Part shown: in pieces, positions 1 to 34,590 of the stretch
Layout of the letters: every line of letters begins with the position of its first letter
Numbering within the stretch: position 1 is the first letter of the stretch
Assembly (NCBI RefSeq): GCF_964204645.1
Contig: NC_134031.1
Location: 11,968,088 to 12,032,087, forward strand
Direction: 5' to 3'
DNA from: Tubulanus polymorphus
Lineage: Eukaryota; Animalia; Nemertea
DNA: 64,000 nt
Program-made: the position numbers and the translations under genes
The notes under the pieces: model-generated
What the model saw: the letters and a program-made list of their open reading frames with translations, nothing else
The model's database searches: none
Told to the model about the DNA's origin: nothing

Positions 1-29
1 AAACTAAATCCATTTCAAATAAACCTTAC

Positions 30-3000
30 ATGGAAAATGTTAGAAATTATATTGATTCACTAGAAATAAAAGATACAATTGAAATATTAGAAACATTACG
101 TAGTAAAATTGGTCCTGCAGCAATTATATTTAGATTTTCTAAAGGTACAACAATAGAAGATTATAGTAAATTTAATGAAATAATAGAAAAAATACTAGAT
201 TTGATAACAGATGTTGAATATCCAAAAATTAGTATCTCTGGGAAAGTAAGTTTTATAAAGTCAGAAGAAAAAATGAATTATAATATTCAAACACTCTCTG
301 AAGAAATAATTTCAAAAACACAAATAAAAGAGAAGTTAGAAAAAATATTAAATGAATTTAAACGTCATATTGAAGAAAGATATTTTGAGGGTTCTGGCTT
401 AACATTGAATGAAATTATATATTTAGATTTAAATGTTTATAATACAAAAAGGAATAAAACATCAAAAAGTAATAAAATGTTTAAAAATGATTCAAACTTT
501 ACAACAGAAAAGGATATGAAAGCATCAAGTTATATCAAATTACCGTTTACAACAAAAGCAGTAATAAATATTCAAAATGAAGATAATAAATGTTTTCTAT
601 GGTCAATTATTAGTTGTTTACACCAAACAGAAGATATGACGCATAGTTTTAGAATAACAAATTACCAGAAATATGAAACATTATATAAAATTGATCAATA
701 TCCAGTAACTATAAAAATGATTCCTAAAATAGAAAAAATTAATAATTTAAAAATAAATGTATTCGAATTAATGCAATTACCAAAGACAAAAGGTGAAAAT
801 ATTAAAGATTATACATTGGAAGCTTTATATTTAACAGAATATTATGATGATGAAAATGCTATAGATTTGTTATATTATAAAAAAGATGAAAATGAACATT
901 ATATGTGGTTAAAACAAATTGATTTATTCTTTAGAACGGAAAGTGATCATCATCGTAAAATTTATCTATGTAGAAAATGTTTATCTAAATTTATGACTGA
1001 GAATACATTATTAAAACATAAAGAATTATGTGATAATAAAGATTTTTGTAAATCAATAATGCCAACAGAAAAAGATTATAAATTGAAATTTACTAATCAT
1101 AAATTTAAGAATATTGTTCCATTTGTAATTTATGGGGATTTTGAATCGTTGAATAAAGAATTAACTAATCAAGATAGAAAAGAAATATATAACAAAAAGC
1201 AATTATTAAAATCAATGGATAAAGGAAATGAATTAAATGAAGACGCAACACAAGACCCACCAATTATAAATACAATTAAAAAAGTTCATCAAAGAGCTGC
1301 TGCTTATGGAATTTACATCAAATCAAATTATCCCGAATTATATGAAAGTCAATATATTTCTTTTAGAGGTGAAAATGTAGTTAATGATTTTTGTGATAAA
1401 ATGATTGAATTAGAAAGTGATTTTACAAAATTATTAAACAAAAATAAAAGAATAGTTATGACAAAAGAAGATGAAATTGATTTTAATTATGCAACTCATT
1501 GTTGTTATTGAGAAAAACGTTTTTATTCATTTGATAAAAGAGTTAGAGATCATGATCATTTGAATTCAAAATATCGTGGAGCTGCTCATGAAGATTGCAA
1601 TTTACAAGCTAAAAAAGTAAATTTCGTACCAATATTATTTCATAATTTATCAGGATATGATACCCATCTATTTATAAAACAATTATCGGGAAAATTGGGT
1701 GCAATTAATCAAGAAATAGAAGAATATAATGCTATGAATGAAGCAAATGTAAGAAAATATGATTTTAAACTATTAGCTAAAATATCTGAAAATTATATTT
1801 CATTTCAATTTGGTTGCATTAGATTTTTAGATTCTTATAGATTTCTAGCAAGTTCATTAGATAATTTATCAAAAAGTTTAGTTGATAATGATTTTGTTAT
1901 AACTCGATATTATTATCCAAATGACCAAGATTTTAAATTATTGAGATATAAAGGCGCAATTCCTTACTCATTTTATAAAACACACGATGATTTTAATGTA
2001 ACAGAATTATTAAAAGATCAATTTTATGATCAATTAAAAGAGGAGTATGTGAAAGACGAAGTGTTTAATAGAACATTAAATATTTGGAACCATTTTAAGA
2101 TGAAAAATCATGGGGAATTAGTTGATTTATATTTAAAATCAGATGTTATGATATTGGCTGACATATTTGAAAAGTTTAGAGAAGTTAATCTAAACCATTT
2201 TAATGTTGACCCTTGTTATTGTTATTCAAGTCCTGGTTTAACCTGGCAATGTGGTTTAAAATATACAAATGTAGAATTAGATTTATTAAAAGAACCAGAT
2301 ATGGTTTTATTATTTGAAAAATCAATTAGAGGTGGAATTAGTGGTGTTATGGGAGATAGGTATTTTAAAGCAAATGATGAATATAAATTATTATATATTG
2401 ACGCCAATAATTTATATGGTTGGGCAATGATGCAACCTCAACCATATAAAATTTTTATATTAACAGAAGTTGAAAATGATGATAAAACTAATTGGGAAAG
2501 CGCAATTATGAGTTTAGAAGATGAAGCACCAATTGGTTATTTCTTTGTAGTTGATTTAGAATATCCTGATAACATAAAGTTTAAAACAAGAAACTTACCT
2601 TATTGCCCAGAACATTTAACTGTAGATGATAGTTATTTAAGTGAATACCAGAAGAAAATAAAACCGAAAGATCATGTTTTTACAGAAAAATTAATACTTA
2701 CTCAAAATAATAAATACAATTATATTGTTCATTATAGAATGTTAAAATTTTATCTAAAACAAGGAATGAAATTGAAGAAAGTACATAGATATATTGAATT
2801 TAATCAATCGAAGTGGTTAGAAAAATATATAGATTTCAATACTCAACAGAGAACAATATCAAAAACAGATTTTGAAAAAGATTTCTTCAAATTAATGAAT
2901 AATAGTTTTTATGGTAAAACATGTGAAAATATTAGAAATAGAAATGATATTGAATTAGTGAATAATTCTGAAAGATTAAGACATTTACAATCAAGTCCTA

Positions 3001-4715
3001 GACATTTAGGAAATAAAAGATTTGAAGATTATTTAACAGCAGTAAAATTAAAAAGAACGTCCATGAAATTTAATAAACCAATATTTATAGGTTCAACCGT
3101 TTTAGAAATTTCAAAGCTATTGATGTATAATTTTTATTACAATGTTTTACAACCATTGTTTGGGGAAAAACATATAGAAATTCTGTACTTCGATTCTGTA
3201 ACGGCCGACACCCCAATATTATTAAAATGTAATAATAAAATATTGGTAAGAAGAATTTCAGAAATAATTCCAAAACAAAATGAATGTTATATTTCATATG
3301 GTGAAAAAGAACTAATACAAATAAATGGTTTAATGGATGTTTGGACAAGAAATGGATGGAAAAAATTAAAGAATATTACTAGGCATAAAACAAATAAGAA
3401 AATCTATAGAGTTAGAACTAAATTAGGATTTGTAGATGTTACAGAAGATCATAGTTTAATTAAACGAAATGGTGATAAAATAAAACCAACTGATATAAAA
3501 ATTGGAGATGAATTATTACATAAAAGATATTTCCAAAGAATGAATCATATGTCATTCGATGAAATTATTGATAATATTTATAATATAGAACACGAAACAT
3601 TAGAAGAAAAAGAATATTTTATCAAAGGATTTTTCATGGGTGATGGTTCAGCAGGTGTGTATAAATATGTTTGGGGTAATAAATATTGTTGGTATTTATG
3701 CAATCAAGACTTAAGATTATTAGAAAGAATTAAGAAATTCTGTGAAGAAGTTTATCCAAATAAAACATTTAGAATCATGGATGTTATGAAATCATCAGCA
3801 GTTTATAGAATACTTGTAAATAATCCTAAAGATTTTGCTATAGAATATAATGATGAATTCTATATTCATGCAATAGTGAAAAGTAATACTTCAACAAAAG
3901 AAAAGATAGTTCCAGATTATGTATTAAATGCAAAAAATAATTTAAGAAAATGGTTCTTTATTGGATTCTACGCAGCTGATGGTACTAAAAAATTTACAAA
4001 GGATAAAAAGATAACCTTTGCACAGAAAGGAAAAGTTGCTATATCAGGGTTAAATATATTATGTAATTCATTAGGCTTCAATATGAATATTGGATTGATT
4101 AAATCTAAACCAAATTGTTTTAATCTAAGCCACACAGAAAAAGATTTAACTGAAGAAGTTAAAGATTTATTTGAAATATATAACCCAACTGACTATGTTT
4201 ATGATTTATCAACAGATGATGGAACATTCAATTCTGGGTTCCCATTAATCCAAAAAAATACGGATGCGTACATACTAAAAATCAAGACAAATGACATAAC
4301 AAAAGACTTAAAAACATTAAAACATCATTTTGATTTTAGTAATTATCCCAAAGATCATGAACTATTTAGCAATGATAATAAAAAGATTCCTGGTAAGTTT
4401 AAAGATGAATTAGGAGGTGATGAAATGATTGAATTTGTTGGGATAAGAAGTAAAATGTATAGTTACAGAACAAAAGATCATGAAGCTAAAAAGTTAAAAG
4501 GAATAACTAAACATGTGGTTGGTAAACATATAGAATTTCAAGATTATATAAAGTGTTTATATAAATCAATTGTAATGAAACACAAAATGAATTGTTTAAG
4601 ATCAGAAAATCATGAGATGTACATTAATGAAGTTGAAAAAACTAGTTTAAATCCATTTGATGATAAAAGGCATATTTCAGATGATGGTATAAAAACATTA
4701 CCTTATGGCCATTAA
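30..4715 (+). pseudogene. Protein-primed family B DNA polymerase (pPolB) with EndoVII/HNH insert and intein; one in-frame TGA at 1509-1511; frame open to the window edge
   Basis: ORFs 30..1511 and 1560..4715 share a frame and are colinear with the 1343-aa PolB of copy B. Motifs YGDFES, FHNLSGYD, YIDANNLYGWAM, KLMNNSFYGK, YFD/TD. TGA replaces the last Cys of CYYC. Confidence 0.93.
3195..4259 (+). mobile_element. Intein (355 aa) with LAGLIDADG homing endonuclease in PolB catalytic motif C
   Basis: In-frame insertion relative to copy B (YFD|TDSY vs YFD|SVTADTP...LIQKN|TDAY). Block A SVTADTPIL, block B VTEDHSL, LAGLIDADG motifs FIKGFFMGDGS and FFIGFYAADGT, block F YVYDLSTDDGTF, terminal KN followed by +1 Thr. 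Confidence 0.95.
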
Positions 4716-6013
4716 AACATAAAATCAATATCATCATACTCGAAATCACTATTGGATTCTTCATTTTCATTTAATTGTTCAGGTTCTTCTTCCATTCCAT
4801 TTTTCTCATTTAAATAAAGTTCTATCTTGTTCCACATTTCATCTCGCTCTCTTTGTTTCTTTTTGTTTGTTAATTCATAAAATGGAATTATAATATCTAG
4901 GTTTAAATAATTTACAATCTTATTTAAAAAGAATTCATAATTTATTGAATCTGTTATTCTATTTTCCAAATAATACATTAATATTTGTTTAAATATTTTT
5001 TTTATATTTTCCATATCTTCTTCTGTTAATTTAGGTTTTTCATAATAATCGTTAAATAATAAATATAAATACATTTTCTTTTGTTTTGTGTTAAATGTTG
5101 ATGGAATAATTGTTTTTATAATATCTTTTTTAGTTATTTCACCATTTTTATTTTCTATTATTTTCATTTTTTCAAGCCATTGCATATATTCTGGTGTATG
5201 ATCTTCTATAGAAAATATTTTAAAAATTTCATCTAGATAATTTAATTTTGGTTCTATGAGAAAATCTCTAGTTTTTTCTTCACCCCATAAATTCTTTTGC
5301 CATCCACATTCAACACAAAATAACACAGTACCTTCTTGTCTTAAGGTCGCATAACTACATTGTGGGCATTTTCGTTTATAATTTATGGGTAATAGATCTT
5401 CATTAAGCTCTTGGTATTTTCTTACGTTTTCTTTATGTTTTATTGTTCTATTATGTAGATTTGAATTACTTGTTGTAATAATCAATTTACAATATTTACA
5501 ATAATATGTTTTTCTTGTTAATTCATTATATTGTTTTTCTAACTTTTCAACTGTTTCTTTATTATCTGGTAACGTTTTCTCATATTTTATTTTTTCTAAT
5601 AAATTATTTTTTCTTTCATTGAATTCAGTTTCAAATTTATTAGAAATTTTATCTATATGTGCTTTACGAAATTGATGATTCTCCCAATCTTCTATATTTT
5701 CAGGGCTATATTTTACTTGACAAGGCTCACAGAAATGATCTTTTATATTATCCTTATCATAGAATAAGAAAGGTCTTTTCCAAATAACTTCAGGTTCAAC
5801 TTCAGCAGAATTACTATCAACATTAGCCGTTGCGCCATTAATTCTACACTTCTCTGAATGTTTTTTAACATAATTTCTTGAGAATAATTTATTACATTTT
5901 GGACAGTTTATTTTAGGGGGTTTATAATTTTCATCATGTTTTTTCATATGTCGAGCCATATTACTTTTTCTTAGAAGTTCACCACAAATTTCGCATGCTA
6001 TCTTCTCATCCAT
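4712..6013 (-). CDS. Multi-zinc-finger protein fused to a poxvirus A2/VLTF3-like late transcription factor domain
   Basis: N-terminal C2H2-type fingers, then the zinc ribbon CPQC...FCVECG and LTEEDMENIKKIFKQILMYYLENRITDSINYEFFLNKI...DEMWNKI. This matches my recollection of vaccinia A2 (IFKHLVFFCQEN...TINYSFFLDKI). Confidence 0.75.
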   Translation of the reverse strand: MDEKIACEICGELLRKSNMARHMKKHDENYKPPKINCPKCNKLFSRNYVKKHSEKCRINGATANVDSNSAEVEPEVIWKRPFLFYDKDNIKDHFCEPCQVKYSPENIEDWENHQFRKAHIDKISNKFETEFNERKNNLLEKIKYEKTLPDNKETVEKLEKQYNELTRKTYYCKYCKLIITTSNSNLHNRTIKHKENVRKYQELNEDLLPINYKRKCPQCSYATLRQEGTVLFCVECGWQKNLWGEEKTRDFLIEPKLNYLDEIFKIFSIEDHTPEYMQWLEKMKIIENKNGEITKKDIIKTIIPSTFNTKQKKMYLYLLFNDYYEKPKLTEEDMENIKKIFKQILMYYLENRITDSINYEFFLNKIVNYLNLDIIIPFYELTNKKKQRERDEMWNKIELYLNEKNGMEEEPEQLNENEESNSDFEYDDIDFMF

Positions 6014-6081
6014 TTATTAAGGAAAAATTTTATTAAAATTAATTTTTAGTGATGAGCGGTAATTTTTTTATGTTATAAATA

Positions 6082-6840
6082 ATGGTAGAATTAAAAGAAT
6101 ACAGAATATTTATTGATTCTAGAAAACTTACAAATTATAAATCTCATAATTTACTAGTACAATTAGATAGAGAATTCAAGAATTGTGTAGATTTAAAATT
6201 AGTTAATATAAGTTTATGTAATTCTTTTTATAATATATCGGATAAAAGTCTAGAACATTTAATTTTTTCAATCTTTTACAAAAAAAGGAATAAATGGTTT
6301 TTTATATATTTAAAACCAGGATTATATAATTTAGATACATTAACACAAGAAATTAATAGAAAAGCTCGAGCTAAATTAGGAAGTGATTCCGGATTTAGTA
6401 TTAGAATTTTAAAAAGTGCTAGTTCTAATAAAATAAAGATTAGGTTAGCTAATGACGAACAATTTAAATTTACAATAAGAAAACCTTTAGCTAAACTGTT
6501 AGGAATTGCACCAGATACCGTTACAGCATACGCAGAAGGTAACTCAAATATAATACCTTTTACACACTTTTATATTTATTGCAATTTAATCGATCCTACA
6601 AAAACATTTGAAGCAACTAAAGATACAATTTGTAATTCTGGTTTATTAAATATTTTACCATTAAAAAATGTCAAACAATTTGGAACTCAAATAAATTATA
6701 ATTTAACTGAATGTGATTTCAAACCTTGTATTCCACATTTCAATAATTTTAAATTAGAAATAAGAAATCATAATGGTTATTTAATTGATTTGAATAACTT
6801 TCCTGTAATTTATGAATTAGTTATAAGATGTAAAGAGTAA
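6082..6840 (+). CDS. Minor capsid (penton, single jelly-roll) protein
   Basis: Size and motifs typical of Polinton PX/penton (IFIDSR; FYIYCNLI; FKLEIRNHNGYLIDLNNFPVIYELVIR); conserved in copy B. Confidence 0.7.
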   Translation: MVELKEYRIFIDSRKLTNYKSHNLLVQLDREFKNCVDLKLVNISLCNSFYNISDKSLEHLIFSIFYKKRNKWFFIYLKPGLYNLDTLTQEINRKARAKLGSDSGFSIRILKSASSNKIKIRLANDEQFKFTIRKPLAKLLGIAPDTVTAYAEGNSNIIPFTHFYIYCNLIDPTKTFEATKDTICNSGLLNILPLKNVKQFGTQINYNLTECDFKPCIPHFNNFKLEIRNHNGYLIDLNNFPVIYELVIRCKE

Positions 6841-6856
6841 TTTTTCACCTATATAA

Positions 6857-7213
6857 ATGAATATAACTGTTGGACCGAGTATATGTTTTGGATTTGATTT
6901 TAAACGTGAGAAAGAAATGAAATTTAACATTAATGATGTAATAACACATATCAAAAATATTGCATTTTCTAATGAAACAACATTTGAGTATGAAACAACA
7001 ATAGATAAAGAAACTTTAAATGTAGAAAAGATTACTAATTTAATTAGAGAATCTTTAAGATTTTATGAATTAGATGAAGATTTTATCATAGATGATATCA
7101 AAAAAATAATAATTGAAATATATGATAATCATAAAACTAGTAATGAAATAAATGTTGAATTAATCATAAATAAGTTAACTAAATATTTTGAAGATAGTAA
7201 TTTTTTTGATTAA
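6857..7213 (+). CDS. Conserved hypothetical protein
   Basis: Near-identical homologue at 26192..26539; TAAATG start. Confidence 0.75.
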   Translation: MNITVGPSICFGFDFKREKEMKFNINDVITHIKNIAFSNETTFEYETTIDKETLNVEKITNLIRESLRFYELDEDFIIDDIKKIIIEIYDNHKTSNEINVELIINKLTKYFEDSNFFD

Positions 7214-7216
7214 TAA

Positions 7217-7438
7217 ATGAGTGATAATAAGTGGATAATAACTGGATTATATAATGGCGCATTACTATCAGTTGGAACTGTTGGTTATTCAATGGTATTA
7301 AAAAAAGTATTCAAAATGGGAAGTGTTAATGTTGATAGATTTGATATAAATGATATTCTAAAATTAACATTAGCAGTTACTTTATCTAATTTAACTATTG
7401 ATTATTTGGAAAAACAAAAATATATTCCTCCCATATAA
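7217..7438 (+). CDS. Small putative membrane protein
   Basis: Two hydrophobic stretches; near-identical copy at 26540..26761; TAAATG start. Confidence 0.7.
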   Translation: MSDNKWIITGLYNGALLSVGTVGYSMVLKKVFKMGSVNVDRFDINDILKLTLAVTLSNLTIDYLEKQKYIPPI

Positions 7439-7462
7439 ATACATAATTTTTTTGTTAAATAA

Positions 7463-7885
7463 ATGGCTTCTGCAATTATAACTATTATAGGATCGGCAAT
7501 TGTTAACGCTTTAGCATTTACTGGTGGTGGTTATTTATTTAAACATATTGATAAAAATAGTTCATTAGGAGAACAAAGAAGACATAACTTAGCGTTAGAG
7601 AAATACAATAAAGCTGCAGAAGAATATAGAGAAAAGAGGCAAAACTATATGGATTATATTAACAAAGAATTATATGATCAGAAGATTTCACATAGAGATT
7701 TTCAATCAGTTGATGATGCAATGAGTTTATATAACGCAGTAACAAATAAAGAAAAATTACATCTATACAAACCTAAATTATCAGATTATTATACCCCAAG
7801 TAAAGAACAACAGAAATATGAAATAATATGGATTTTAGGTGGAACTGTTATTGTTATATTTGTTGCTTATAAATTTACTAATTAG
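7463..7885 (+). CDS. Putative membrane protein (N- and C-terminal hydrophobic helices, central coiled coil)
   Basis: Identical protein at 26786..27208; TAAATG start. Confidence 0.75.
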   Translation: MASAIITIIGSAIVNALAFTGGGYLFKHIDKNSSLGEQRRHNLALEKYNKAAEEYREKRQNYMDYINKELYDQKISHRDFQSVDDAMSLYNAVTNKEKLHLYKPKLSDYYTPSKEQQKYEIIWILGGTVIVIFVAYKFTN

Positions 7886-7904
7886 TAATTTTTATTCTAA
7901 ATAA

Positions 7905-8339
7905 ATGGAAGATAAAGTTGATAGTATTGATATTATTCCTCATGATATAAATAAAACTAAATTAAAAACATATTTAGAAAAACAAATATTAGAATTTGAA
8001 AGTGACTTAAAGATAAAAAAGAAAAAATATTTAAAAAGTAAAATTATATATTATTTGATTATCAGTGGTTCGGTTACAATTAGTTCCGTAATAACATTTC
8101 TAGCAATATTCAGCCCATTAACACCTTTAGCTATATCAATTGGTGTATTAGGATTAAGTTCAAGTGTTTTAACTGGTATAAGTTCAAAATTAAATATAAA
8201 AAGTAATAAAGAAAAAATTAAAACTAATATAAAAGAAATTAATAAATTAAAGAACACACTAGATTATATAATAAGTTTAAATGGTCATATAACAGTTGAA
8301 GAACAAGATAAATTATTAAAAGAATTAATAAATTATTAA
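7905..8339 (+). CDS. Two-TM membrane protein
   Basis: Hydrophobic hairpin IIYYLIISGSV...VLTGI; near-identical copy at 27228..27662. Confidence 0.75.
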   Translation: MEDKVDSIDIIPHDINKTKLKTYLEKQILEFESDLKIKKKKYLKSKIIYYLIISGSVTISSVITFLAIFSPLTPLAISIGVLGLSSSVLTGISSKLNIKSNKEKIKTNIKEINKLKNTLDYIISLNGHITVEEQDKLLKELINY

Positions 8340-8356
8340 TTTTTTTAATTATATAA

Positions 8357-9745
8357 ATGGTAGATAGTTTTCCAAAAGCTTTCCAATATAATAAATCAAT
8401 TAAATATAATATTCCAGCAATAGATTTTAATAAAGATATTACATATAGAAATGAAGTTTTAGATTCATTAATTGATTTATATATTTATGTTACTGAAACT
8501 AATAATTTTAATGCAAAGATGGAAAATATATTTCATGTATATTTAATTAATTTTAAAAAATTGAAAGGTGAAAAACAATGGTTATTAAAATCTAATATGA
8601 AGTATTGGCAGAACCAATTAAATTTTGCTGTTTATTGTGCAACAACAGGATGCGGAATTTGTTGGAATGATCATTTGAATAATTCTAAATATAAATTAAT
8701 TCAAAGTTTATTTAGATTTCATACATACTTTCAAATCAGAATAATATTAAATGAATTAGAGTGCGCTTTACCAGGATCTAGGTATTTCAAAGAATTAGAT
8801 AATAATATCAATTTATCTAAGTTTTATAAAATTTGTAATGAATTTAATATAGATATAAATAATTCTGATTTTAGAACAAAAATTGGAACAATAAGATCAC
8901 TTCCTTGCCCTAAAAAGATTGCAGAATATTGTGCACTTCCCATACCATCTAATAGCTTTTATAATATCTATAATAATAAATTAGGTTATGGTAAAATAGA
9001 AACAAAAGATTTAGAAACATTAAATTTCAATAAATTACCAAAATTTTATGATCATTTAAAACAAGAAAACAATAATGGTTGGGTATATTTTATTTTAGAG
9101 AATAGTGAAGGTTTTACTAAATCAGGTATAGAAAGAATAAATCAATCTATTAGAACTTATTTGATATGTATTCTAGGATCACAAGTTGAAACAAGATCAC
9201 CGATAATTGGAAATTTGAATACATCATTCGATACACAAAAACAATTTAAAGTTTTATTTGAAGATTCAATTCATAATGATAAAAATAGATCGATTCCAGA
9301 AAACATTATAAGATATCAAAATTATTTAGATAAATCTCATGTAAGACTTAATTATTGTATAGGCCCTAATCTATTAATTATTTCTAATGATTTAGTATTG
9401 AAGATGGGAAATATAATTGGTTATAATAATCTAATTAAAACTGCAACAATAAATAATTCATTTGGGTTAAATGATATAAATAAAAAGATTATCACTGCTC
9501 CAAAATTAATGGAAGGTGAAAAAAAAAAAAAAAAAAAAAAAAAAACAGAAACTAAAACTAAGAATATTAAATTAAATAATGATTCTAAAATAAAAGATTA
9601 CAATACATCAGAAAATAATAGAACTGATAAAATTCAACATGATATAATTAAAACTGATAATGATAATAAATCACATGAAAATACTAAATTAGCTATAACT
9701 TGTATAGGAATTGTAATCGGAGGAATATTATATTTTAAATTTTAA
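8357..9745 (+). CDS. C-terminally anchored putative virion membrane protein (462 aa)
   Basis: C-terminal TM LAITCIGIVIGGILYFKF; homologue at 27679..28980. Confidence 0.75.
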   Translation: MVDSFPKAFQYNKSIKYNIPAIDFNKDITYRNEVLDSLIDLYIYVTETNNFNAKMENIFHVYLINFKKLKGEKQWLLKSNMKYWQNQLNFAVYCATTGCGICWNDHLNNSKYKLIQSLFRFHTYFQIRIILNELECALPGSRYFKELDNNINLSKFYKICNEFNIDINNSDFRTKIGTIRSLPCPKKIAEYCALPIPSNSFYNIYNNKLGYGKIETKDLETLNFNKLPKFYDHLKQENNNGWVYFILENSEGFTKSGIERINQSIRTYLICILGSQVETRSPIIGNLNTSFDTQKQFKVLFEDSIHNDKNRSIPENIIRYQNYLDKSHVRLNYCIGPNLLIISNDLVLKMGNIIGYNNLIKTATINNSFGLNDINKKIITAPKLMEGEKKKKKKKKTETKTKNIKLNNDSKIKDYNTSENNRTDKIQHDIIKTDNDNKSHENTKLAITCIGIVIGGILYFKF

Positions 9746-9761
9746 TTTTTTTATTATATAA

Positions 9762-11192
9762 ATGGAAGTAGAAGGTGTAGAAGATATTGGAATGGATCCT
9801 TTTGATGAACCTGGTATAACTGATGAACAACCACCTGATTTTGATGAAACAAGTTTTAATGATGGTAATGAAACAGCATATAATTCTAATTTAACTACAC
9901 CCCAATTTATTGACAAAGCACGTTCAAAGATAAGTATTGAAAATGAAGTACCAGAAATAACAGAAAAAGAATACAATTATCATGAAATTATTCATGATTT
10001 TAAACCAATGTTAAAAAAATCTGGTTTCAATATATCAAATAAAGGTATGGATCATTTAGTAGAAGATTTGAAATATTTAAATGGTGAATATTATTGGAAA
10101 TTGAAAGGTGACTATTATTTTAAGATTTCAAATCTTAAAAGTAGTGATAAAATAATAACACAATCAACTTTAAATTTATTAGAACAATCTAGAATTAAGA
10201 AAATCAATAATGATGTTATAACTGATGTTACAGAAAAAGAAAGATCTGATAATTTAAAAGAATTTAAACAAAGAAATGCTAAATTTTTTAAGATAATTAA
10301 TGAAATTTTAGAAACAGAAACAACTTCTGAACAGAATATAACTTCCAAAACTAGTAAACTTAAATCAAATAAAGTTCCAATTGAAAAACTTTTACCGAAT
10401 GGATTAATTGATGCAACAGATCAAGAATTAGAAGATTTAGATATATTTTCTGATAAAGCAATTAGAGAAATTATTAGTATAAGACTTGCATCTAATAAAA
10501 TTGCACATGATAAAAGTATAAGAGATTTTAAAATTAGAACTTTAGAAAAAGAATTAACTGATAAAAATAAAGAAATAGAAAAAATAAAATCTGATTTAGA
10601 TCATCAAGTAATTGATGAAATAGAATATAGGCAAAAAGAATTACGTTTAGAAAAAGAAAAAGATGATTTAGAATATAACATAGAATTACAAAAAGAAGAA
10701 ATTAAATTATTGTTAAAATCATATGATTATAATATTAATAGATTAAAAGTTATTTTTAAAGATTTGTTGATTAAACCAAATTCTGAAATATCATTAAAAG
10801 ACAGAATAAAGTTATTATTTAAATTAGAAGGAATAACAATTCTTTCAATTGTAACAGCTGTAACTATGTTATTTACAACAATTAGTTTAGCAATATCAAA
10901 TGCTTTGAAATCTACTCCTACTCCCAATAAACCAGATAAACCTCCAGGTAATAATTCTATACAAGATAAAGTTAAGGATGGTTTAAAGAAATTAGCAAAA
11001 TATTTATGGGAACTATCTAAAAAATCTGCTGCAGCATTGCCAGGAGTTATTGCTTCAATTGTTGGTTTTATATTGAAATCTGCAGGAAACATTATTAACT
11101 TTGCTGCTGAACATATTATTTTATTTTTAATTACAGTTGTAAGTGCTATTATTTTTGGTTTAGTAAATATGATATCAAAAAATATCAAGTAA
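9762..11192 (+). CDS. Coiled-coil membrane protein (acidic N-terminus, C-terminal hydrophobic helices)
   Basis: Charged heptad-rich centre and multiple hydrophobic segments; homologue at 28997..30457. Confidence 0.75.
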   Translation: MEVEGVEDIGMDPFDEPGITDEQPPDFDETSFNDGNETAYNSNLTTPQFIDKARSKISIENEVPEITEKEYNYHEIIHDFKPMLKKSGFNISNKGMDHLVEDLKYLNGEYYWKLKGDYYFKISNLKSSDKIITQSTLNLLEQSRIKKINNDVITDVTEKERSDNLKEFKQRNAKFFKIINEILETETTSEQNITSKTSKLKSNKVPIEKLLPNGLIDATDQELEDLDIFSDKAIREIISIRLASNKIAHDKSIRDFKIRTLEKELTDKNKEIEKIKSDLDHQVIDEIEYRQKELRLEKEKDDLEYNIELQKEEIKLLLKSYDYNINRLKVIFKDLLIKPNSEISLKDRIKLLFKLEGITILSIVTAVTMLFTTISLAISNALKSTPTPNKPDKPPGNNSIQDKVKDGLKKLAKYLWELSKKSAAALPGVIASIVGFILKSAGNIINFAAEHIILFLITVVSAIIFGLVNMISKNIK

Positions 11193-11233
11193 ACCATGAT
11201 AAAAAATAAATAATTAATTTTTTTGTTAAATAA

Positions 11234-12482
11234 ATGAGTGGGAGTTATATAAGTCCTTCCAAGATTTCTAGAATATCTAATGCTATTAAAGCAGAAAGAT
11301 CACATCATATAATTACTCATAACCCTTCAAATATTAATCCCGATGAAACTTTATATGTTAGAATCCCTCGATTAACACAAAATACTTTTTATGTTCCAAA
11401 TAGTATTTATTTATCAGCCGATATAAAAGTAACTGGCCATGATAACAATTATGTTGTTGATAATGTTGGAAGATATTTGATTAAAAAATTAACTATAAAG
11501 ATTGGTCCGGAAACAGTTTTCTCATTAGATGATTATAATTTATTTATGCATTATAAAGATTTATGGTTAACTAAAGAAAATAGAAATAATATGATATTTC
11601 AAGGCATCCAATCGGAAAACCATAATAAATTAAGATCTGAAGCCAATAATGCAGTAGTAACTCGTGCCACAGATAATTTGATTAAAAAGATTTATGGAAG
11701 CAAATATAAAATTCCATTAGACTTTGAATTGATAAATAATAATGCACCTTTATATAAATACGCAATTCAAGAAGATATTATATTTGAGATAACATTTGCT
11801 CCTGTAAATGAAATTGTATTATCTAGCGTTGTTAAAGATATGGGTTATAAATTATCGAATATATGTTTAGAATATAACACAGTAACTAATGAAAATATTG
11901 CTAGCACAATTCAAACTCAATACAATCAAGGATTTTCATTATTATATGATTATATTGATAAATTTAAAACTGTAACTATTAATGCAAATGATGAAATAAT
12001 TAATGAGAATATTAACTTTCCTAGAAGATCTATTAAAGGTATATTAATATTTTTTTACTATTGCAACATATTCCAATGGTGCAATAAATGTTGATAATTA
12101 TTATAATCCTGAAATAACAAAAGTAGAAATAACTATTGAAGGTATAGCGAATAAAATATTTTGTCAAGGAATGAGAATGATTGATCAATGGCCAGAAATT
12201 AAAAAACATTTTATGAATGAAAAAGTAAAATCATTTGAAAATTGTAATATTAATCAAATTGATTATTATACCGGTAATAAATATGCATTATGGTTAGATT
12301 TTAGAACAACTGAAGATAATTCATTACATGGTTCTGGAAAAAAACTACAGAACACTAAAGATGGAATACAATTATTCATGAAAAAGAATAAAGGAATCAA
12401 AAATTTTAAAATGCATATTTATATTATATCTGACGCACAATTAAATATTGTAAATTCACAATTAGATAGTATTCAATATTAG
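11234..12482 (+). pseudogene. Major capsid protein (double jelly-roll-like), +1 frameshift in T-run near 12050-12056
   Basis: Colinear with 30530..31776. About 415 aa when repaired, beta-rich and next to INT/ATPase. T7 here versus T6 in copy B. Confidence 0.7.
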
Positions 12483-12512: not shown

Positions 12513-13640
12513 ATGAGTGGTAAAAAAACTCCTAATATTAAAGAACAATATTTAAGAAATTTATATTACAACCCTGAGAGTTCGGTTGCTTATTCTTCTA
12601 CTAAAAATATATGGCGTAAAGTAAAACAAGATAAATTAGATAAGATAATCCCACAAAATTTAGTTAAACATAAAGATATAAATGAATTTATGTTAGAACA
12701 ACCAACATATACAACACATAAAAAAATTGTTAGAAAATATAAAACTCGTAAAACTATGGTAAGTTATGTAGATCAACAGTGGCAAGGAGATTTAATTGAT
12801 ATGAAAAATGTTAAGAAAGATAATGATGATTATTGGTGGTTATTGAATATAATTGATATTTTTAGTCGTTATGTATGGAGCTTCCCACTTTATAGAAAAG
12901 ATGCTGTACAAACATCAAATGTTTTAAGAAAATTTCTTTCGGATGATAAACTAAAACCAGAAAAAATACAATTTGATGATGGAAAAGAATTTGATAATTC
13001 ACTTGTTCATGGACTTTTAGATTTTCATAATATTAAATATTTTTCAACAAAATCGGATAAAAAAGCAGCAGTTGTTGAACGATTTAATAGAACATTAAGA
13101 ACAAGAATGTGGAAATATTTTACAGCAAATAATACTTTTAAATGGATTGATGTTTTACCAAAATTGATAGAAGGATATAATAATTCTTATCATTCTTCTA
13201 TTGGAATGAAACCTATTGATGCTAGAAAACCTGAAAATGCTGAAATTGTTTGGAATAATTTATATGGAGCATTTCTTGTAGATGATTTTGGTGAACCTAA
13301 ATTTAAAGTTGGTCAAAATGTTAGAATTTCTAAGTATAAAAAGATATTTGATAAAGGATACGATCGAAATTTTACTAGAGAAATATATAAAATAAAAAAG
13401 GTAATAACAACTAAACCATATGTCTATAAATTAGAAGATTTAGATGGTGAAGAAGTTGATGGATATTTTTATGAAGAAGAATTAAGTTTAACTACTGAAA
13501 ATCTAGAACAAGAATATAAAATTGAAAAAGTACTAAAAACAAAAACTATTAAAAGAAAAAAATATTCTTTAGTAAAATGGGTTGGATGGCCAGATAAATT
13601 CAATGAATGGATATTATCAAGTAAAATTAAAAATATATAA
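12513..13640 (+). CDS. Retroviral-like (rve) integrase with C-terminal chromodomain
   Basis: DDE motifs WQGDLIDM, IQFDDGKEF, VVERFNRTL; chromodomain YKIEKVLK...LVKWVGWPDKFNEWI. Confidence 0.95.
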   Translation: MSGKKTPNIKEQYLRNLYYNPESSVAYSSTKNIWRKVKQDKLDKIIPQNLVKHKDINEFMLEQPTYTTHKKIVRKYKTRKTMVSYVDQQWQGDLIDMKNVKKDNDDYWWLLNIIDIFSRYVWSFPLYRKDAVQTSNVLRKFLSDDKLKPEKIQFDDGKEFDNSLVHGLLDFHNIKYFSTKSDKKAAVVERFNRTLRTRMWKYFTANNTFKWIDVLPKLIEGYNNSYHSSIGMKPIDARKPENAEIVWNNLYGAFLVDDFGEPKFKVGQNVRISKYKKIFDKGYDRNFTREIYKIKKVITTKPYVYKLEDLDGEEVDGYFYEEELSLTTENLEQEYKIEKVLKTKTIKRKKYSLVKWVGWPDKFNEWILSSKIKNI

Positions 13641-14249
13641 ATGAATAAGGAATTATTCATATTTGAGCCTCATAATATGTTAATTTCTGGCGTAACAAAT
13701 TGTGGAAAAACTTATTTCATACTAAATTTATTAGAAACTGTTTATAAAAACTATTTTGATAATATAGTATTATTTTGTCCAACATATGAATTTAATCAAA
13801 CTTATGATAGAAATATTACTAGGAATAATAAATTTATTATATTAGATCCTAAAACAGTAAAAGAAAATTTAGATAATTGTATAAAAATAGCAATTGATAT
13901 TTATAAAGGATCAAATACATTATTTATCATAGATGATTGTGCAAATTTACATGATTCAAAAATTAGAGAAAGTGAGTTATGCTATTTAGCTTTCTCTGGG
14001 AGACATTTTGGGATAACAACTTGGGTTTTAAATCAAAAATATAATTCAATTGTTAAAGACTTTAGAGAAAACATTAGATTTCTAGTTTTATTCTACAATA
14101 AAGATAGAAAATCAATGAAAAATGCACTTGAGGAAAATGATATTATTCCACATGATTTACATAATGAATATATGGATAAGTTGAAAAATATTAAAAGATC
14201 AAAATTACTATTTAGATTACAACACCCATTTAAATATGAATTTATTTAA
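13641..14249 (+). CDS. A32/FtsK-like genome packaging ATPase
   Basis: Walker A GVTNCGKT, Walker B LFIIDD, SGRHFGIT motif. Confidence 0.92.
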   Translation: MNKELFIFEPHNMLISGVTNCGKTYFILNLLETVYKNYFDNIVLFCPTYEFNQTYDRNITRNNKFIILDPKTVKENLDNCIKIAIDIYKGSNTLFIIDDCANLHDSKIRESELCYLAFSGRHFGITTWVLNQKYNSIVKDFRENIRFLVLFYNKDRKSMKNALEENDIIPHDLHNEYMDKLKNIKRSKLLFRLQHPFKYEFI

Positions 14250-15931: not shown

Positions 15932-15996
15932 TTAGGAAAAAAAATTACTTGTGGTGATGAGTGTTAGGAAAAAAAAATTACTTGTGGTGATGAGTG
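15932..15996. repeat. Two ~32-bp direct repeats in the subterminal region of Polinton A
   Basis: TTAGGAAAAAAAATTACTTGTGGTGATGAGTG x2. Confidence 0.85.
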
Positions 15997-16046
15997 GTGT
16001 CTCGTCCTCTCGTCCTCTGGTATGAAAGCCACATATTCTAATTACT

Positions 16047-17932
16047 TTTGACATTCCTAAAATTCTACAGAGCTCGGATATTACCTTCGACTCGAAGTTC
16101 CTCCCTTGGTCGGAATGCAGTACGGCAGGAATTCCAAATTTTTTCACGTAATGGTCATGTAAAACACGAGCCACACCGACGGCAGACTGATTTCGAGTCG
16201 CAAACGCTAACGCGTATTTCGTGAAATGGTCCGTGACCACGAGCACATCCTCGTAACCACCAGAGGGCTCCAATTTCATAAAATCCACACAAAACATTTC
16301 CATAGGATAAGTCGTCGCAATCGGTACCAGAGGCGCAATCGAAGGTGGACTTTTGAACAACACGCAACGTGAGCACGTTCTCAGATATTTCTCCACATCC
16401 GACTTCATTCCTGGCCAGAAAAATCTACCACTTACGAGTGCCATGGTACGATCACGTCCGGGATGCGACATCTCACCATGTAACAAGCGCAATACCATCG
16501 AGCGCTCGGACTTCGGTAGGACGATCTGGAAGAGTGTTTGTCCATCCATCCATTTCTTCCGACACAATACACCTTCCTTCATCACTAAATTTGGTAAATG
16601 TCGCTTGAAACGCTTCTCTTCTTTCGTTTTCAGAAAAACTTTGTTACCGGTTTCCAAAGAAAGAATAAGGCTACGTAAAACAGGGTCTTCCTTTTGTTTC
16701 AAGGCAATGTCCACCTCACCGACCACAAAACGCCTCTCCGACTGTCCTTCGGTAACCATTAAACCCTCGCAAATCGCTTCTATCACATTCTCCCCGAGGC
16801 GAAGCCTCGATAGAGCATCCGCATCGGTGTTGTTGGCTCCGCTGCAGTACACCAACTCCAAGCGAAAAGGATACGGCAGTTCCCCATTGCGTTTCCGAAC
16901 TAACACCACAGGTGACGAATATGGAGAAGATGAAGGCCGAATTATTCCTGCGTCGAGCATCATTTTCAAGTGTTGACGCACTTCATCTATCATTCCGGGC
17001 GGCACGCGGCGATAGCGTTCTTTAACAGGAGTATCTTCTGTCAAACGGATCCGATGTTTCACCAAGTCAGTCCCTGTCGAACCCAGCTGCTAACGACCCG
17101 TCATGACTAGAAACATCCTGATTCGATATCTTTTTGCTACTATAAACACTATTTACATTCGTTTCACGTTTCGAACTAATACCAGTACAAGCATCAGTGA
17201 ACTTTACTTCATCCGTTCCCACATCTTTCCCGCAGCTTCTCGGTGATCCAATCCAGCTAACCTCACAGGATCGACGTAGAAAACGTTAGCTAACGGAGTC
17301 TTCGCAGGAATTTTTACGGAGGTAGCCCCAATATTACGTACGATCACGGATACCCTATTATACTTACCCCTATTTACAGACGAAACTGACGGCGCAACGA
17401 TTAAATTACCGGGAAGCGTGACGGAAACTTGCGATGTCATCACGTTGAGATCTCCTAGTACTGGAGTTCGCAATATCCCTTTCAATACCATCTCTGAGTA
17501 GGGACCAACTTCGAAAAAAGTATCAGTTTTCACAACAGCATCTTCTGCCTCACTCATCTGATTCACATGTGCCTTCCATGGCAACGGCAAACTTTCCTCA
17601 GACGCATCTAACTGTCGTAGCAGATTTGTTCCTAAAATCACCGGGACTTGTTGCTGATAATCAGTCGTTGGGACAACCAGACATAGCACCCAATGGAACT
17701 GACGTCCTACATCGACTTTAACTTCGGAATAGCCCAAATACGGCAACGAGTGTCCACCGGCGGTAGTTGCATCTAGGATCTCTTCCAACGGGTTAATTTG
17801 AATTCCCATTTCATCAACAAATTTTTTTGACAAAGTCGATACCATGGCCCCGGTATCTATTAATGCGGTACAGCTCCTCCCGTTCACTAGCACATCCATT
17901 TCACTGGCGGGTCCGAGCAAACCATCTATCAA
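16047..17932 (-). pseudogene. Gypsy pol: aspartic protease, RT/RNase H mostly deleted, integrase truncated by Polinton A
   Basis: ALIDTGAMVS protease; RT start VVLVRKRNGEL fused directly to the RNase H end ADALSRL; HHCC zinc finger; VDFM and LHSDQGRNFES core; frame break at 17065-17204. Confidence 0.9.
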
Positions 17933-18012
17933 CTCCTCCTTGGTTATAGTGTCGGGTTTTGGACGTTCGCGTTGGGGGCGTGGTCGTCCCTCTCCACAGC
18001 CCCTTGACCGTT

Positions 18013-20011
18013 TTAATTCACATCCCTCGATGAAGGTCTCGATCCATTCCCCGGACAGTTTTTATAAAAATGCTCTGCTACTTTGCCACACTTAAAACAT
18101 CGATAAGTAGGCGGAGGCATAGGTGTAGGCGTCGCTGGCATCTTGCTCCACTCCGGGCAATTTTTTATATAATGGCCAGGCTGACGACATTTATAACATG
18201 CCTTCCCTACACCGACATCTTTCTCAAGTCTCCTAAGTCGACTATCCATTTCGGAAACCTTGGTGACCAGATCCTTCATTTCTCGATGCATATCATCTAA
18301 CTTTTTCTCCAATTTCACCTCGAAATCACGGGATGTACCGGTTTCCTTCACTATATTCGACATGGCGGCTCGATGCCCCACTTCCCGCGGTATCGCCTTA
18401 CTTCGAGCGGATGATCCCAGAGACTCTTTACTGATCACGAGTTCCTGCTCGACGACCCGAGCTTCAAGAACCAAATCTTGGAAAGACGCCGCGGTTTGCA
18501 ATAACGGACGCACAGCAATTTTTATTTGGGCATTTACCAACCCCGCACAAAACTGATTTCTGACGACCTCGTCCGAAATATCACATGAAAGTCCACGTAA
18601 ATCATCCAACCGACAAGCCCACGAAGCAACATCTTCGTGCGGTTCCTGTTTTGCCGTATAAAAATTCATCATAACCTGTGAGGGTGACAATACACTAGGC
18701 CTACCGAAAATCACTGAAAATTTGTCGATTACCTGTTTCACAGTTACAGACTTGCCCATTGACAGCAATAACTTAGCCGCCGCACCCTTAACCGACCGAC
18801 GAATAGCAGAAATTAAGGTACTGGGACTTATAGTAGTGTGACAGTGGTATTATTGAGTTTCAACAGCAGTCTCAATTCATAGGCAGTGCTGCCATCTTCT
18901 AACGATATCTTAAACTATTCCGCATTCATTATCCAACTCATTCAACAGTGCCATCTTTCGTGATAAAACTTTCGAACTTTGTTCCAGCGTCAGCTTTCAT
19001 ATAACTTTTTGTACTGAGATTGAACCTTAGGAAAATTACGACTAATGCGCGTCAGTTGCTCGTAAGTATTTGCTTCTGCGAGCAACGACTGCCGCTGAAG
19101 AACATAATTCAAAGTTAATGTTACATTTTTCTGGGAAACTGTCACGTATAATGTCCTTTTGTAATGATTTCGGTTGAATAATGATATTTTTATGGGCAAC
19201 GCTGTTGCGCTAACGACAAATTAACGGTCTTTGGCAATGTCATTCGCTAATGAGATGGGTTGGAGAATTGACTATATATACTGGGGTTTTTGGACCGTGG
19301 GGGAGACCGCTAGAAATTTTTAGATCGTTGAGATCGGTTCGTGAAATAAAAGTAATTTTGAAGACAGGAACTCTGTGTGTTGCGACTCGTTTATTCTTGG
19401 ACGTTTGTTAACATTCTATCACTCAAGTGGAATTCAAAGATCCCGTTAGTGACAGTAGGATCACCCTGTAAACAATTAACCTCATTTTTCCATTGCCTAA
19501 AATCCGCTTCTCCTTTACCCCTTTCGCCGCTAAATGAACTTATACGGATATTGCTCCCGAAAGAAACAAACGGGAACCCGCCGGAATTTTTATTAGATAA
19601 TTCCGAGAACCCAGGTTTGGCTGTCAAAACAGGGGATGAAAGACCGAAATCAAGGGTTCTTTGTATTCTCTCTTTTTTTCCTGACCCCCGCTGAACATTA
19701 TCTACAATCTGTTGAGCACGGTTTAAGGCCATCTTATCCAATTCAACCTGTAGTTGCTCGACCACAGAACCTACGTCACTCAAATCTTTGAGGGGAAAAA
19801 CGGTTACCCGATTCGAGTTAATAATGATGTGATCCCGTGTAGCCAATAGTTTCTCCACACTCTCTACTCTAAAAAACACTACCAAATAACCATCATTTCC
19901 TTGCTTCAATAGTTCTATTATACCATGAGAACGTAACGCCCTCTGAAGCTCCTCAGCAGAAACTAATTGTGGGTCAACCTGCGCAACTAACCCACGATCC
20001 TGTAATGACAT
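18013..20011 (-). pseudogene. Gypsy gag (PNMA-like capsid plus CCHC zinc knuckles), split by solo LTR
   Basis: Removing 18837-19458 restores ...CLQGDPTISPSTLISAIRRSVKG...; knuckles CYKCRQPGHYIKNC and CFKCGKVAEHFYKNC. Confidence 0.88.
18837..19454 (+). mobile_element. Solo LTR of an unrelated LTR retrotransposon (618 bp)
   Basis: TGTGAC...GTGACA ends, 4-bp TSD GTAG (18833-18836 and 19455-19458), internal TATATA and AATAAA. Confidence 0.82.
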
Positions 20012-20652
20012 GTTGCTGAGCTTCCGTTTTCCACCCAGAAATAAATGTTTATCTGTATTAATATCCCAAGGTAAATGTCAACTCCGGTACGCTGAGTCGT
20101 TGCTACTAACAGACCTACCTTTTACAAGTGTGCTTACAGCACAATTAAGCTCACAAACTAAAAACTGAACCTACTTAAGCCAGTTTAAGTCAAATCAAAA
20201 TTTTTAATTAATGAAGCATGAGAACTCGTAAGTGAAACTAAATGAATGATTACCCACTCGTCAGGTACAGCTAGTTAAGTTAACAGTAGAAAACAGACAC
20301 CTTAATATTGTTCTCAGCAAAACCAATCAAAATTCATGCACATCACCTTTAATTAAATACATAAACTTAAACCCTACCCCTGACTCCTGGTCAGGATAGC
20401 AAAAATCAAATCAAGTTTTGAAGGAAATAAATCGGAAAAATATAAAATAATAATTGACTTTTTTCAGTCACGAAAATAAATGTAAGTCACACTTTCACCA
20501 CACACCGACTAATCAACGAAAAAAGAGTCACTCCCAGCTGGGAACGCAATGTACATAAACGCAACACAGACGCAAGCAAAATAAAACAAAACTGACTAAA
20601 GAGCGATGTCTCTTCCAGTCAGGGAAACAAAACACAAATCGCAACACACAAG

Positions 20653-21110
20653 AGTAATAGGGGTAATAGGCTTTCAGATCAAAGGTCGAACGGTCGAGCT
20701 CGTAAAAAATGAAAAACATAAAAATAATTACAATTTCTACTTGAATTACTCGCGAAACTCATAAAAATGAAAAATAAATTCTCACACGCTCGAATTTATT
20801 TTTCATTTTATGAGTTTCACTCCTAATTCAAGTAGAAATTGTAATTATTTTTATGTTTTTCATTTTTACTCACCCGCCCGTTCAACCTTTAACCCGAAAG
20901 CCTATTACCCCTATTACTCTTAAAATATTCATATATATATGAATAACATTTAAATCATTGAACTTCTAAAATCAATTTTAATAAAAAATATAGTATTAAA
21001 ATGGAAGCAAATAAGTACTACTGCCCAACATGTAAGATAAATATAGATAAGTCTCAAAAAGCAAGACACAATAAAACTAAAACACATTTAGAGAATAAAT
21101 TGAAACTAGA
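20653..21110 (+). repeat. Left TIR of Polinton B (contains 266-nt hairpin 20653-20918 and the first ~37 PolB codons)
   Basis: Reverse complement of 38468-38925, with about one mismatch seen. Confidence 0.95.
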
Positions 21111-25032: not shown

Positions 25033-25060
25033 TCAATTTCAATAAAAATTTGTATAATAA

Positions 25061-25402
25061 ATGGATAGTAAACAAGTACACAGTGAATTCTTAGATAGAA
25101 TTAAAGATACTTCAAGCGTCAAATCTGTAGATTATAAATTTAAAAAACTAACTGAGTTAACAATTCACAAGAAATATTTAATTACTAACATTGAAACAAT
25201 TACTAATAAATATGGAGATAAATTAGTAATTCATTTAGAATATGAAGGATTAAAAGGAAATAAATATAAATTCAGAACTTATTTACCAGATAGATTTCAT
25301 AGATTATCAAGTGAAGATCTAGAAGAATTATGTTCTGGTGATTTCTATTTCGTATACAAAGGTAAGAATGAAAAAGGGCACCATGAAATAGATTTCGAAT
25401 AA
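25061..25402 (+). CDS. Small conserved protein (possible OB-fold/ssDNA-binding)
   Basis: Homologue of 15602..15928; directly follows PolB. The function is a guess. Confidence 0.7.
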   Translation: MDSKQVHSEFLDRIKDTSSVKSVDYKFKKLTELTIHKKYLITNIETITNKYGDKLVIHLEYEGLKGNKYKFRTYLPDRFHRLSSEDLEELCSGDFYFVYKGKNEKGHHEIDFE

Positions 25403-25419
25403 GAAAATATGTAAAATAA

Positions 25420-26175: not shown

Positions 26176-26191
26176 TTTTTTCACTATATAA

Positions 26192-26539
26192 ATGAATATA
26201 ACTGTTGGACCGAGTATATGTTTTGGGTTTGATTTTAAACGTGAGAAAGAAATGAAATTTAACGTTAATGATGTAATTACACATATTAAAAATATTGCAT
26301 TTTCTAATGAAACAACATTTGAGTATGAAACAACAATAGATAAAGAAACTTTTAATGTAGAAAAGATTACTGAGTCTTTAAGATTTTACGAATTAGATGA
26401 AGATTTTATCATCGATGATATTAAAAAAATAATAATTGAAATATATGATAATCATAAAACTAGTAATGAAATAAATGTTGAATTAATCATAAATAAGTTA
26501 ACTAAATATTTTGATGATAGTAATTTTTTTGATAAATAA
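26192..26539 (+). CDS. Conserved hypothetical protein
   Basis: Homologue of 6857..7213. Confidence 0.75.
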   Translation: MNITVGPSICFGFDFKREKEMKFNVNDVITHIKNIAFSNETTFEYETTIDKETFNVEKITESLRFYELDEDFIIDDIKKIIIEIYDNHKTSNEINVELIINKLTKYFDDSNFFDK

Positions 26540-26761: not shown

Positions 26762-26785
26762 ATGCATAATTTTTTTGCTAAATAA

Positions 26786-27208: not shown

Positions 27209-27227
27209 TAATTTTTTTTCTAAATAA

Positions 27228-27662: not shown

Positions 27663-27678
27663 TTTTTTAGTTATATAA

Positions 27679-28980: not shown

Positions 28981-28996
28981 TTTTTTTATTATATAA

Positions 28997-31776: not shown

Positions 31777-31808
31777 AATTTTAACTTTAATAAAAATATA
31801 TATAATAA

Positions 31809-34587: not shown

Positions 34588-34590
34588 ATT

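Follow-up and report, generated by a model that had tools for sequence, protein, structure and literature searches.

Background

VLTF3 is among the very few genes common to all giant viruses, and its mechanism is poorly understood. In vaccinia virus it is encoded by A2L, an intermediate gene whose product is needed for late transcription in vitro (PMC11980589). According to the same source, poxvirus intermediate promoters contain TAAA with A-rich sequence upstream, and late promoters carry TAAATG at the start codon with T-rich sequence upstream; elsewhere, the late promoter is described as a T-containing core, a spacer of 5-7 bp and TAAAT(G/A), with no 5' untranslated region (PMC5294985). We report here on a gene encoding a VLTF3-like protein with four N-terminal zinc fingers, called the finger-VLTF3 gene below, and on the Polinton that carries it in the nemertean Tubulanus polymorphus. 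The stretch analysed, referred to as the window, comprises 64,000 nucleotides (nt) of contig NC_134031.1 (positions 11,968,088 to 12,032,087); coordinates are window positions unless another locus is named. A first-pass annotation of it had been made from the sequence alone.

VLTF3 is not new to Polinton-type elements. A paper on stony-coral elements, in which it was met once more, states that VLTF3 had been reported before in a polintovirus subgroup and credits this to Krupovic and Koonin 2016 (PMC11131425). It is also listed among the genes of polinton-like viruses (PLVs) of Tetraselmis (PMC9356565), occurs in about 30% of two PLV clusters (bioRxiv 10.64898/2026.06.19.733378), and has been met alone in a sea-anemone genome (PMC5294986). 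Like these, the gene described here is a patchy accessory gene of Polinton-type elements, for which exchange with giant viruses has been suggested. In the sections that concern VLTF3, these texts mention neither a zinc-finger array nor a TAAATG promoter set, and figures of the coral paper may show domain architectures. Neither the finger array nor poxvirus-type promoters of Polintons turned up in print, the full-text matches for TAAAT with polinton or Maverick being off the subject by their titles, and an earlier depiction is possible. The first-pass annotation had placed VLTF3 outside the standard Polinton gene set, which holds insofar as it is not a core gene and does not hold for the polintovirus subgroup in which it has been reported (PMC11131425). 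VLTF3 in a Polinton subgroup is already published; the additions made here are the conserved finger array and the poxvirus-type promoters.

Other systems also invite comparison. Virophages use promoter motifs of their helpers, late ones in Sputnik and mavirus and early ones in PgVV-14T (bioRxiv 10.1101/2022.07.28.501842), and the Polinton, likewise a small integrating element, resembles them in that almost all its genes are immediately preceded by a short conserved motif of giant-virus promoter type; it differs in that the motif is of poxvirus type, the flank looks animal-like, no helper is known and a VLTF3 of its own is carried. African swine fever virus B385R (named 'Zinc finger protein B385R') is, like the Polinton protein, a VLTF3-fold protein longer than the poxvirus one; the fold match to it is weak (E 0.026), the likeness in zinc fingers is taken from its name, and that virus, unlike the element, has its own RNA polymerase. 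TFIIB and cyclin-fold factors also have a ribbon followed by a helical domain, and weak structural matches to TFIIB, pre-initiation complexes and cyclins were obtained. A small element that lacks RNA polymerase genes and combines a finger-VLTF3 with genes of poxvirus layout offers a compact system in which to study VLTF3 recognition and its polymerase partner.

Results and discussion

The C-terminal half is a divergent member of the VLTF3 family

Two related elements are present in the window. Element A extends from the window start to about 15600, its two ends not both lying inside the window; element B (20652-38926) is bounded by 463-nt inverted repeats and lacks the finger-VLTF3 gene. In element A, the gene occupies 4712..6013 on the reverse strand, with its stop codon at 4712-4714, and lies tail to tail with the polymerase gene of the element. 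Its product (P0001, 433 amino acids (aa)) aligns from end to end with two further public proteins, P0002 and P0003. The span 4810-5370, residues 215-402, contains a zinc ribbon and a helical core with the motif IFKQILMYYLEN...SINYEFFLNKI...W. The open reading frame (ORF) thus has the architecture that had been proposed, that is, a ribbon and helical motif behind about four C2H2-like fingers.

An exhaustive phmmer scan was carried out with residues 205-433 against a library of 1.84 billion representatives, at a threshold of E <= 0.001. It returned five proteins, among them P0002 (3e-45), P0003 (2e-23), P0005 (2e-5) and P0006 (9e-4). Two of these matches, of 697 and 446 aa, have the full layout of fingers, ribbon and core; another, of 281 aa, has the ribbon and core only. 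P0005 and P0006 pass the Pfam family PF04947 (Pox_VLTF3) at 1.3e-24 and 3.4e-37, respectively, and P0005 also passes PF08792 (A2L_zn_ribbon). When a profile of P0001-P0003 was aligned by hhalign with one made of six bona fide VLTF3 proteins, including three entomopoxvirus proteins named VLTF-3 by NCBI (P0008-P0010), the match had a probability of 97.3% (E 2.4e-11, 135 columns). BLASTP gave 39% identity over 77 aa (E 4e-9) with VLTF-3 of Amsacta moorei entomopoxvirus (AMEV), a closeness that may reflect the A+T-rich composition common to both. With a protein language model, 27/30 of the nearest clusters fell within the Pox_VLTF3 set. Six core residues (E332, I337, F341, Y359, L370 and W394) are invariant in 6/6 aligned sequences, bona fide VLTF3 included.

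Structure prediction pointed in the same direction. From a single sequence, AlphaFold gave an unusable model, with a predicted local distance difference test (pLDDT) value of 38.9; a 12-row alignment that included VLTF3 rows gave a model with pLDDT 74.2. This model, whose alignment thus contained VLTF3 sequences, had 11 Foldseek matches in BFVD at E <= 1e-3, 7/11 of them named VLTF3 or late transcription factor and belonging to cowpox, two entomopoxviruses, Megaviridae, Pandoravirus, Marseillevirus and Tetraselmis virus 1. The best named match was cowpox (E 1.2e-5, template modelling (TM) score 0.56). Fold matches in the PDB were weak, the best being to pre-initiation-complex and vaccinia polymerase entries (E 0.05-0.1, TM about 0.15), and do not establish the TFIIB-like fold that had been suggested.

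Several searches were negative. PF04947 was not among the 18 families that hmmscan listed for P0001 at E <= 10, and PF08792 gave no direct match either. A PHROGs scan yielded nothing below E 0.29, the PDB sequence search of P0001 finger matches only, word-indexed homologue searches with residues 205-433 no matches, and a phage collection a chance match only (E 6). IMG/VR scans found nothing for P0001 or P0006, and with alignment A4 retrieved the AMEV record only. A later profile search did return VLTF3, but its profile already held two VLTF3 sequences and the result is not independent.

Since phmmer, profile, BLASTP, fold and language-model comparisons all lend support, we regard the C-terminal half as belonging truly, if divergently, to the VLTF3 family. 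The first-pass annotation had called the gene VLTF3-like, an assignment to be given up if no profile or structure matched; phmmer, hhalign, BLASTP and Foldseek agree, the VLTF3 profile and fold matches are significant, including those of the model to seven virus groups, and the assignment therefore stands.

A conserved array of zinc fingers

All positions given here are on the reverse strand. Fingers 1 and 2 (residues 7-56, 5846..5995) are classical C2H2 and C2HC fingers with ligands C7/C10/H22/H26 and C37/C40/H52/C56, kept in 3/3 proteins; residues 4-57 resemble the C2H2 fingers of CTCF (phmmer against PDB sequences, E 7.7e-5). Finger 3 (residues 95-119, 5657..5731) has the pattern CxxC-x14-H-x5-H, a U1/JAZ-like spacing, with conserved ligands C95/C98/H113/H119; the finger that aligns with it in P0003 passes Pfam zf-C2H2_jaz (E 6.6e-6). 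Finger 4 (residues 172-193, 5435..5500; ligands C172/C175/H187/H193) shares the H-x5-H spacing with finger 3 and is of U1 type (Pfam zf-U1 E 1e-6, 28.9 bits for a cut-off of 22). In the zinc ribbon (residues 216-236, 5306..5368; CxxC-x13-CxxC), for which the AlphaFold model has three short strands, ligands C216/C219/C233/C236 line up with those of P0005, whose ribbon is the one that passes PF08792, and the whole aligns with the A2L-type ribbon of bona fide VLTF3. The helical core, supported by hhalign, BLASTP to AMEV VLTF-3 and Foldseek against BFVD, covers residues 261-401 (4811..5233). It is followed by an acidic C-terminal tail (residues 405-433, 4715..4801) that is predicted to be disordered (pLDDT <50 at model residues 204-229).

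Compared with poxvirus VLTF-3 (vaccinia A2L and the entomopoxvirus proteins P0008-P0010), the Polinton protein has the same order of ribbon and helical core, together with the identity to AMEV, the profile match and the fold match to cowpox and entomopoxvirus models given above. It differs by some 210 extra N-terminal residues with four fingers, by the acidic tail, by its failure to match PF04947 and PF08792 directly, and by its location in an integrating element of 15-18 kb without RNA polymerase genes.

The fusion was seen in two further public proteins, P0002 and P0003. Overall identity among the three finger-VLTF3 proteins is 35-46%, and at 20/20 metal ligand positions (four fingers and ribbon) all 3/3 have Cys or His. 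Judged on these alignments, conservation of the ligands exceeds chance. A protein atlas search with the whole protein gave no cluster above 0.76; taken as a lead only, this means that no large cluster has a similar overall architecture. At the metagenome locus L001, the 697-aa orthologue is convergent (tail to tail) with a polymerase-like ORF of 1336 aa, which has a U1-type finger at its N-terminus. In the metagenomic relative, the finger-VLTF3 gene is adjoined by a deoxynucleoside kinase gene (9260-9901 of L003, reverse strand; Pfam dNK 1.7e-31) without a counterpart in the elements of the window.

Candidate promoters of poxvirus type

The start codon of the finger-VLTF3 gene lies within TAATAAATG, in agreement with the first-pass annotation, which had it starting at TAAATG. 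In the two elements of the window, 22/31 ORFs start inside TAAATG, as do 14/14 in the metagenomic relative (L001 and L003 taken together) and the gene of L002. In a 20-kb stretch of AMEV the count is 6/17, including AMEV VLTF-3, a start shared with the Polinton gene. Only 5-9% of all ATGs in the elements are preceded by TAA, and the excess among the 31 ORFs is significant (binomial, 4e-17). The fuller pattern of a T-run, 5-9 nt and TAAATG occurs 15 times in the window, compared to 0.13 expected, with 8 sites in A and 7 in B that are related copies and not independent events. Seven of those in A belong to its structural module (6838..11236, forward strand), at 6838, 7198, 7444, 7886, 8337, 9743 and 11215.

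Upstream of orthologous genes in A, B and the metagenomic relative, three classes of box are found repeatedly. Genes of the structural module have TAATTTTTTT, then 5-8 nt, then TAAATG. The integrase and ATPase genes have their own GTAAAATTAA box before TAAATG in A and B, and also in L003. An AATTT(T/C)AATAAAA box precedes the VLTF3-like gene in each of the three lineages, and is found as well at the polymerase gene of element B and at two further ORFs of B. The putative promoter of the finger-VLTF3 gene (6011..6044, reverse strand) consists of a TTAATTTTAATAAAA box, a spacer, and TAAATG over the start codon; a TTAATTTTAATAAAA box with TAAATG is also present upstream of the orthologues in L001 and L002. 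The intergenic promoters are about 22 nt each, one per gene, in gaps of 15-25 nt.

On the face of the sequence, the layout of the structural genes matches the poxvirus late promoter, that is, a T-rich core, a spacer, and TAAAT(G/A) at the start codon, and the A-rich box of the VLTF3-like and polymerase genes resembles poxvirus intermediate promoters. The parallel is close, and it is one of sequence only.

Three other explanations of the motif were considered and set aside. If TAAATG were an artefact of ORF calling, ATG would have to follow directly after an in-frame TAA, which concerns 5-9% of ATGs, compared to 22/31 starts. A role as poly(A) signal for the preceding gene is contradicted by its presence also where that gene is divergent, as at 6011-6016. 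Were TATAAA a TATA box of the usual kind, transcription would have to start past the ATG.

Read depth and coexisting forms of the element

Raw DNA reads were taken from a run with the same species label, and depth is the sum of both directions. It was 237-279 in bins of the VLTF3-like gene, 235-395 in those of the polymerase, 158-183 in those of the intein within the polymerase gene, and up to 1038 in those of the structural genes. Parts of the element are thus covered at about 160- to 1040-fold, which are relative values without a single-copy baseline and not copy numbers. At position 6081, 314 reads change to the B-type junction. Given this number and the depth of 237-279, the gene is not a one-off, and forms with and without it coexist. 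In a part of a 476-aa ORF, at 9824-10340, depth falls to about 36, with 300-1000 to its left and right; few of the genomic copies therefore contain this part.

Possible role and rival explanations

The protein is a genuine VLTF3 homologue behind four fingers. What we favour, tentatively and with less than even confidence, is that the Polinton encodes it as an activator for its TAAATG promoters, one that elements can do without. The zinc ribbon and helical core would contact the transcribing polymerase, as has been proposed for VLTF3 in giant viruses, and the fingers would provide further binding, to DNA or RNA, with a preference for promoters of the element itself. Expression would proceed as a cascade: the factor would be produced first, along with the polymerase and under an intermediate-like promoter, and would then turn on the capsid genes. 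The preferred transcriber would be the poxvirus-type polymerase of a co-infecting virus, implying a virophage-like lifestyle. This preference has four grounds: the initiator lies across the start codon, so that no leader remains, each gene has its own short intergenic promoter of about 22 nt, the G+C content of the element is far below that of the host, and element B keeps the promoters without the factor. The first-pass annotation had suggested a captured helper factor retargeted by the fingers, and had left the choice between recruitment of a helper polymerase to element promoters and a dominant-negative effect on helper late genes; both are inferred, and the promoter anatomy described above makes action at the element promoters appear more likely.

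Carried further, the lineage would live like a virophage, as a parasite of a poxvirus-like cytoplasmic virus that infects a marine animal and has yet to be discovered; the polymerase of that virus would read all the promoters, of poxvirus intermediate and late type, and the finger-VLTF3 protein would pull the helper's late machinery onto the element's genes. We consider this extended version rather unlikely. If a helper polymerase does read the promoters, a poxvirus-type virus would for the first time have a virophage-like partner, and this in an animal.

A number of points weigh against the activator reading. Fingers 3 and 4 belong to the U1/JAZ type, a kind that in known proteins binds RNA and not promoter DNA. 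The direct Pox_VLTF3 match is missing, and the recurrent T-run sites of A and B derive from related copies. No helper virus is visible in the window and none is known. The activator role is thus a predicted one. As the gene is missing from element B, the factor must be dispensable or supplied in trans, and the copy in A may be decaying, given the in-frame TGA in its polymerase (see below). Integration in nuclear DNA by an integrase of the rve/chromodomain kind, together with the read depth, is as compatible with a nuclear life as with dependence on a helper. Finally, VLTF3 is kept in 73/73 giant viruses of one study, among which are phycodnaviruses without an RNA polymerase of their own (bioRxiv 10.1101/455816), so that members of the family can function with the RNA polymerase II (Pol II) of a host.

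These last points lead to the main, close rival as to the transcriber, namely host Pol II. The protein would then be an autonomous nuclear factor that activates the TAAATG promoters with Pol II, perhaps with TBP on the TATAAA-like initiator, without any helper, and A-type copies of the same genome would supply the factor in trans to elements of B type. We regard this as possible, if doubtful. Besides the retention of VLTF3 by giant viruses that lack a polymerase, it agrees with the chromodomain integrase and perfect inverted repeats found in nuclear DNA, with a gene depth near that of the polymerase and the coexistence of both forms at junction 6081, and with a flank that looks animal-like (CCDC50_N exon, E 4e-6) and no helper in sight. 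It is less easily reconciled with an initiator placed over the start codon, which would make Pol II transcripts almost leaderless, or with the downstream start that TATAAA would impose as a TATA box; promoters of about 22 nt per gene in 15-25 nt gaps are in the style of a cytoplasmic virus or virophage, and the G+C content of 20-25% in the elements contrasts with 36-40% in the flank. If Pol II is indeed the reader, the poxvirus late promoter and VLTF3 would predate the viral polymerase, which matters for the proposal of a Polinton-like ancestry of giant viruses.

Two further explanations are less likely than either kind of activator, because the element genes use the same promoter type and because the gene is conserved. 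The protein might be a decoy or dominant negative that binds helper late promoters or late factors without activating them, to the benefit of the element or in defence of the host. Retention of the VLTF3 core under an added array of 210 aa and an acidic tail would suit such a role, as would the optional presence of the gene among elements, and endogenous virophages can protect host populations (PMC10945749). A general inhibitor would, however, silence the element as well, the six invariant core residues are intact and there is no known helper, which makes this role improbable. We give equally little credence to inert cargo, that is, to a VLTF3 gene that came from some large DNA virus and is now a mere passenger of element A. 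The polymerase of A, with its in-frame TGA and intein, and the absence of the gene from the recently inserted element B would be in keeping with it; against it stand an ORF intact across 433 codons and the maintenance, at 35-46% identity, of the architecture, the 20 ligand positions, the promoter box and the adjacency to the polymerase gene.

The two elements and their surroundings

The G+C content of the two elements is 22-25%, and 23% for the Polinton that carries the finger-VLTF3 gene, compared to 36-47% in the flanks. At the DNA level, A and B are 74-90% identical, and the integrase-ATPase block is inverted in B (12513-14249, forward strand, in A; 32892-34587, reverse strand, in B). Element A has the hallmark pair of Polintons. 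Its protein-primed family B polymerase lies at 3..4715 on the forward strand (Pfam DNA_pol_B_2 3.3e-19, with Intein_splicing and LAGLIDADG_3 domains), and its retrovirus-type integrase, of rve type with a chromodomain, is encoded at 12513..14249 (forward strand) together with an A32-type packaging ATPase (rve 3.6e-9, Chromo 2.1e-4, Pox_A32 3.3e-13). The host element had been named a Polinton from the start, and the polymerase, integrase and ATPase bear this out. For the double jelly-roll capsid expected of Polintons, the Pfam scan gave only a weak Capsid_N match (E 0.0029, below cut-off), and for the protease it gave none. The same integrase and ATPase genes were recognised by Pfam in element B; its polymerase has no direct Pfam match, and is 74% identical in nucleotides to that of A.

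A single in-frame TGA (1509-1511) divides the polymerase frame of A into 3-1511 and 1512-4715, so that the copy is either decaying or read through at this codon. The gene also contains an intein, with a homing-endonuclease domain of LAGLIDADG type, at 3194-4258, in ORF 1560-4715 of the forward strand (Intein_splicing 3e-5, LAGLIDADG_3 7e-5). The intein is absent from the polymerase of B, and is covered by reads at roughly half the depth found elsewhere in the gene.

The terminal inverted repeats of element B (20652-21114 and 38464-38926) have 463-nt arms that are 100% complementary, which points to a probable recent insertion. They contain the first 38 codons of the polymerase ORF of B, and the N-terminus encoded there has two U1-type zinc fingers, of the same kind as finger 4 of the finger-VLTF3 protein. 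A second copy of the finger-VLTF3 gene was sought by tblastn of the protein on the window, where at full length it matched only itself, so that its reported restriction to A is borne out within the window; at the matching place, element B has an unrelated ORF of 113 aa (25061-25402).

The ORF divergent from the VLTF3-like gene (6082-6840 in A, 25420-26175 in B) has a weak match to DUF5901, below cut-off in both elements (E 1e-3 and 4.5e-4). Between A and B lies a fragment of a long terminal repeat (LTR) retrotransposon (15932-20011), with a gag zinc knuckle, an aspartyl protease, an integrase and 43-47% G+C; it may have truncated the right end of element A. The right flank is without long ORFs and contains a reverse-transcriptase piece. 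Exon-like matches to CCDC50_N (49708-50127, E 4e-6) and TCF25 (48436-48696, E 5e-4) are present in the flank, which, in the absence of long ORFs, suggests an intron-rich, animal-like host.

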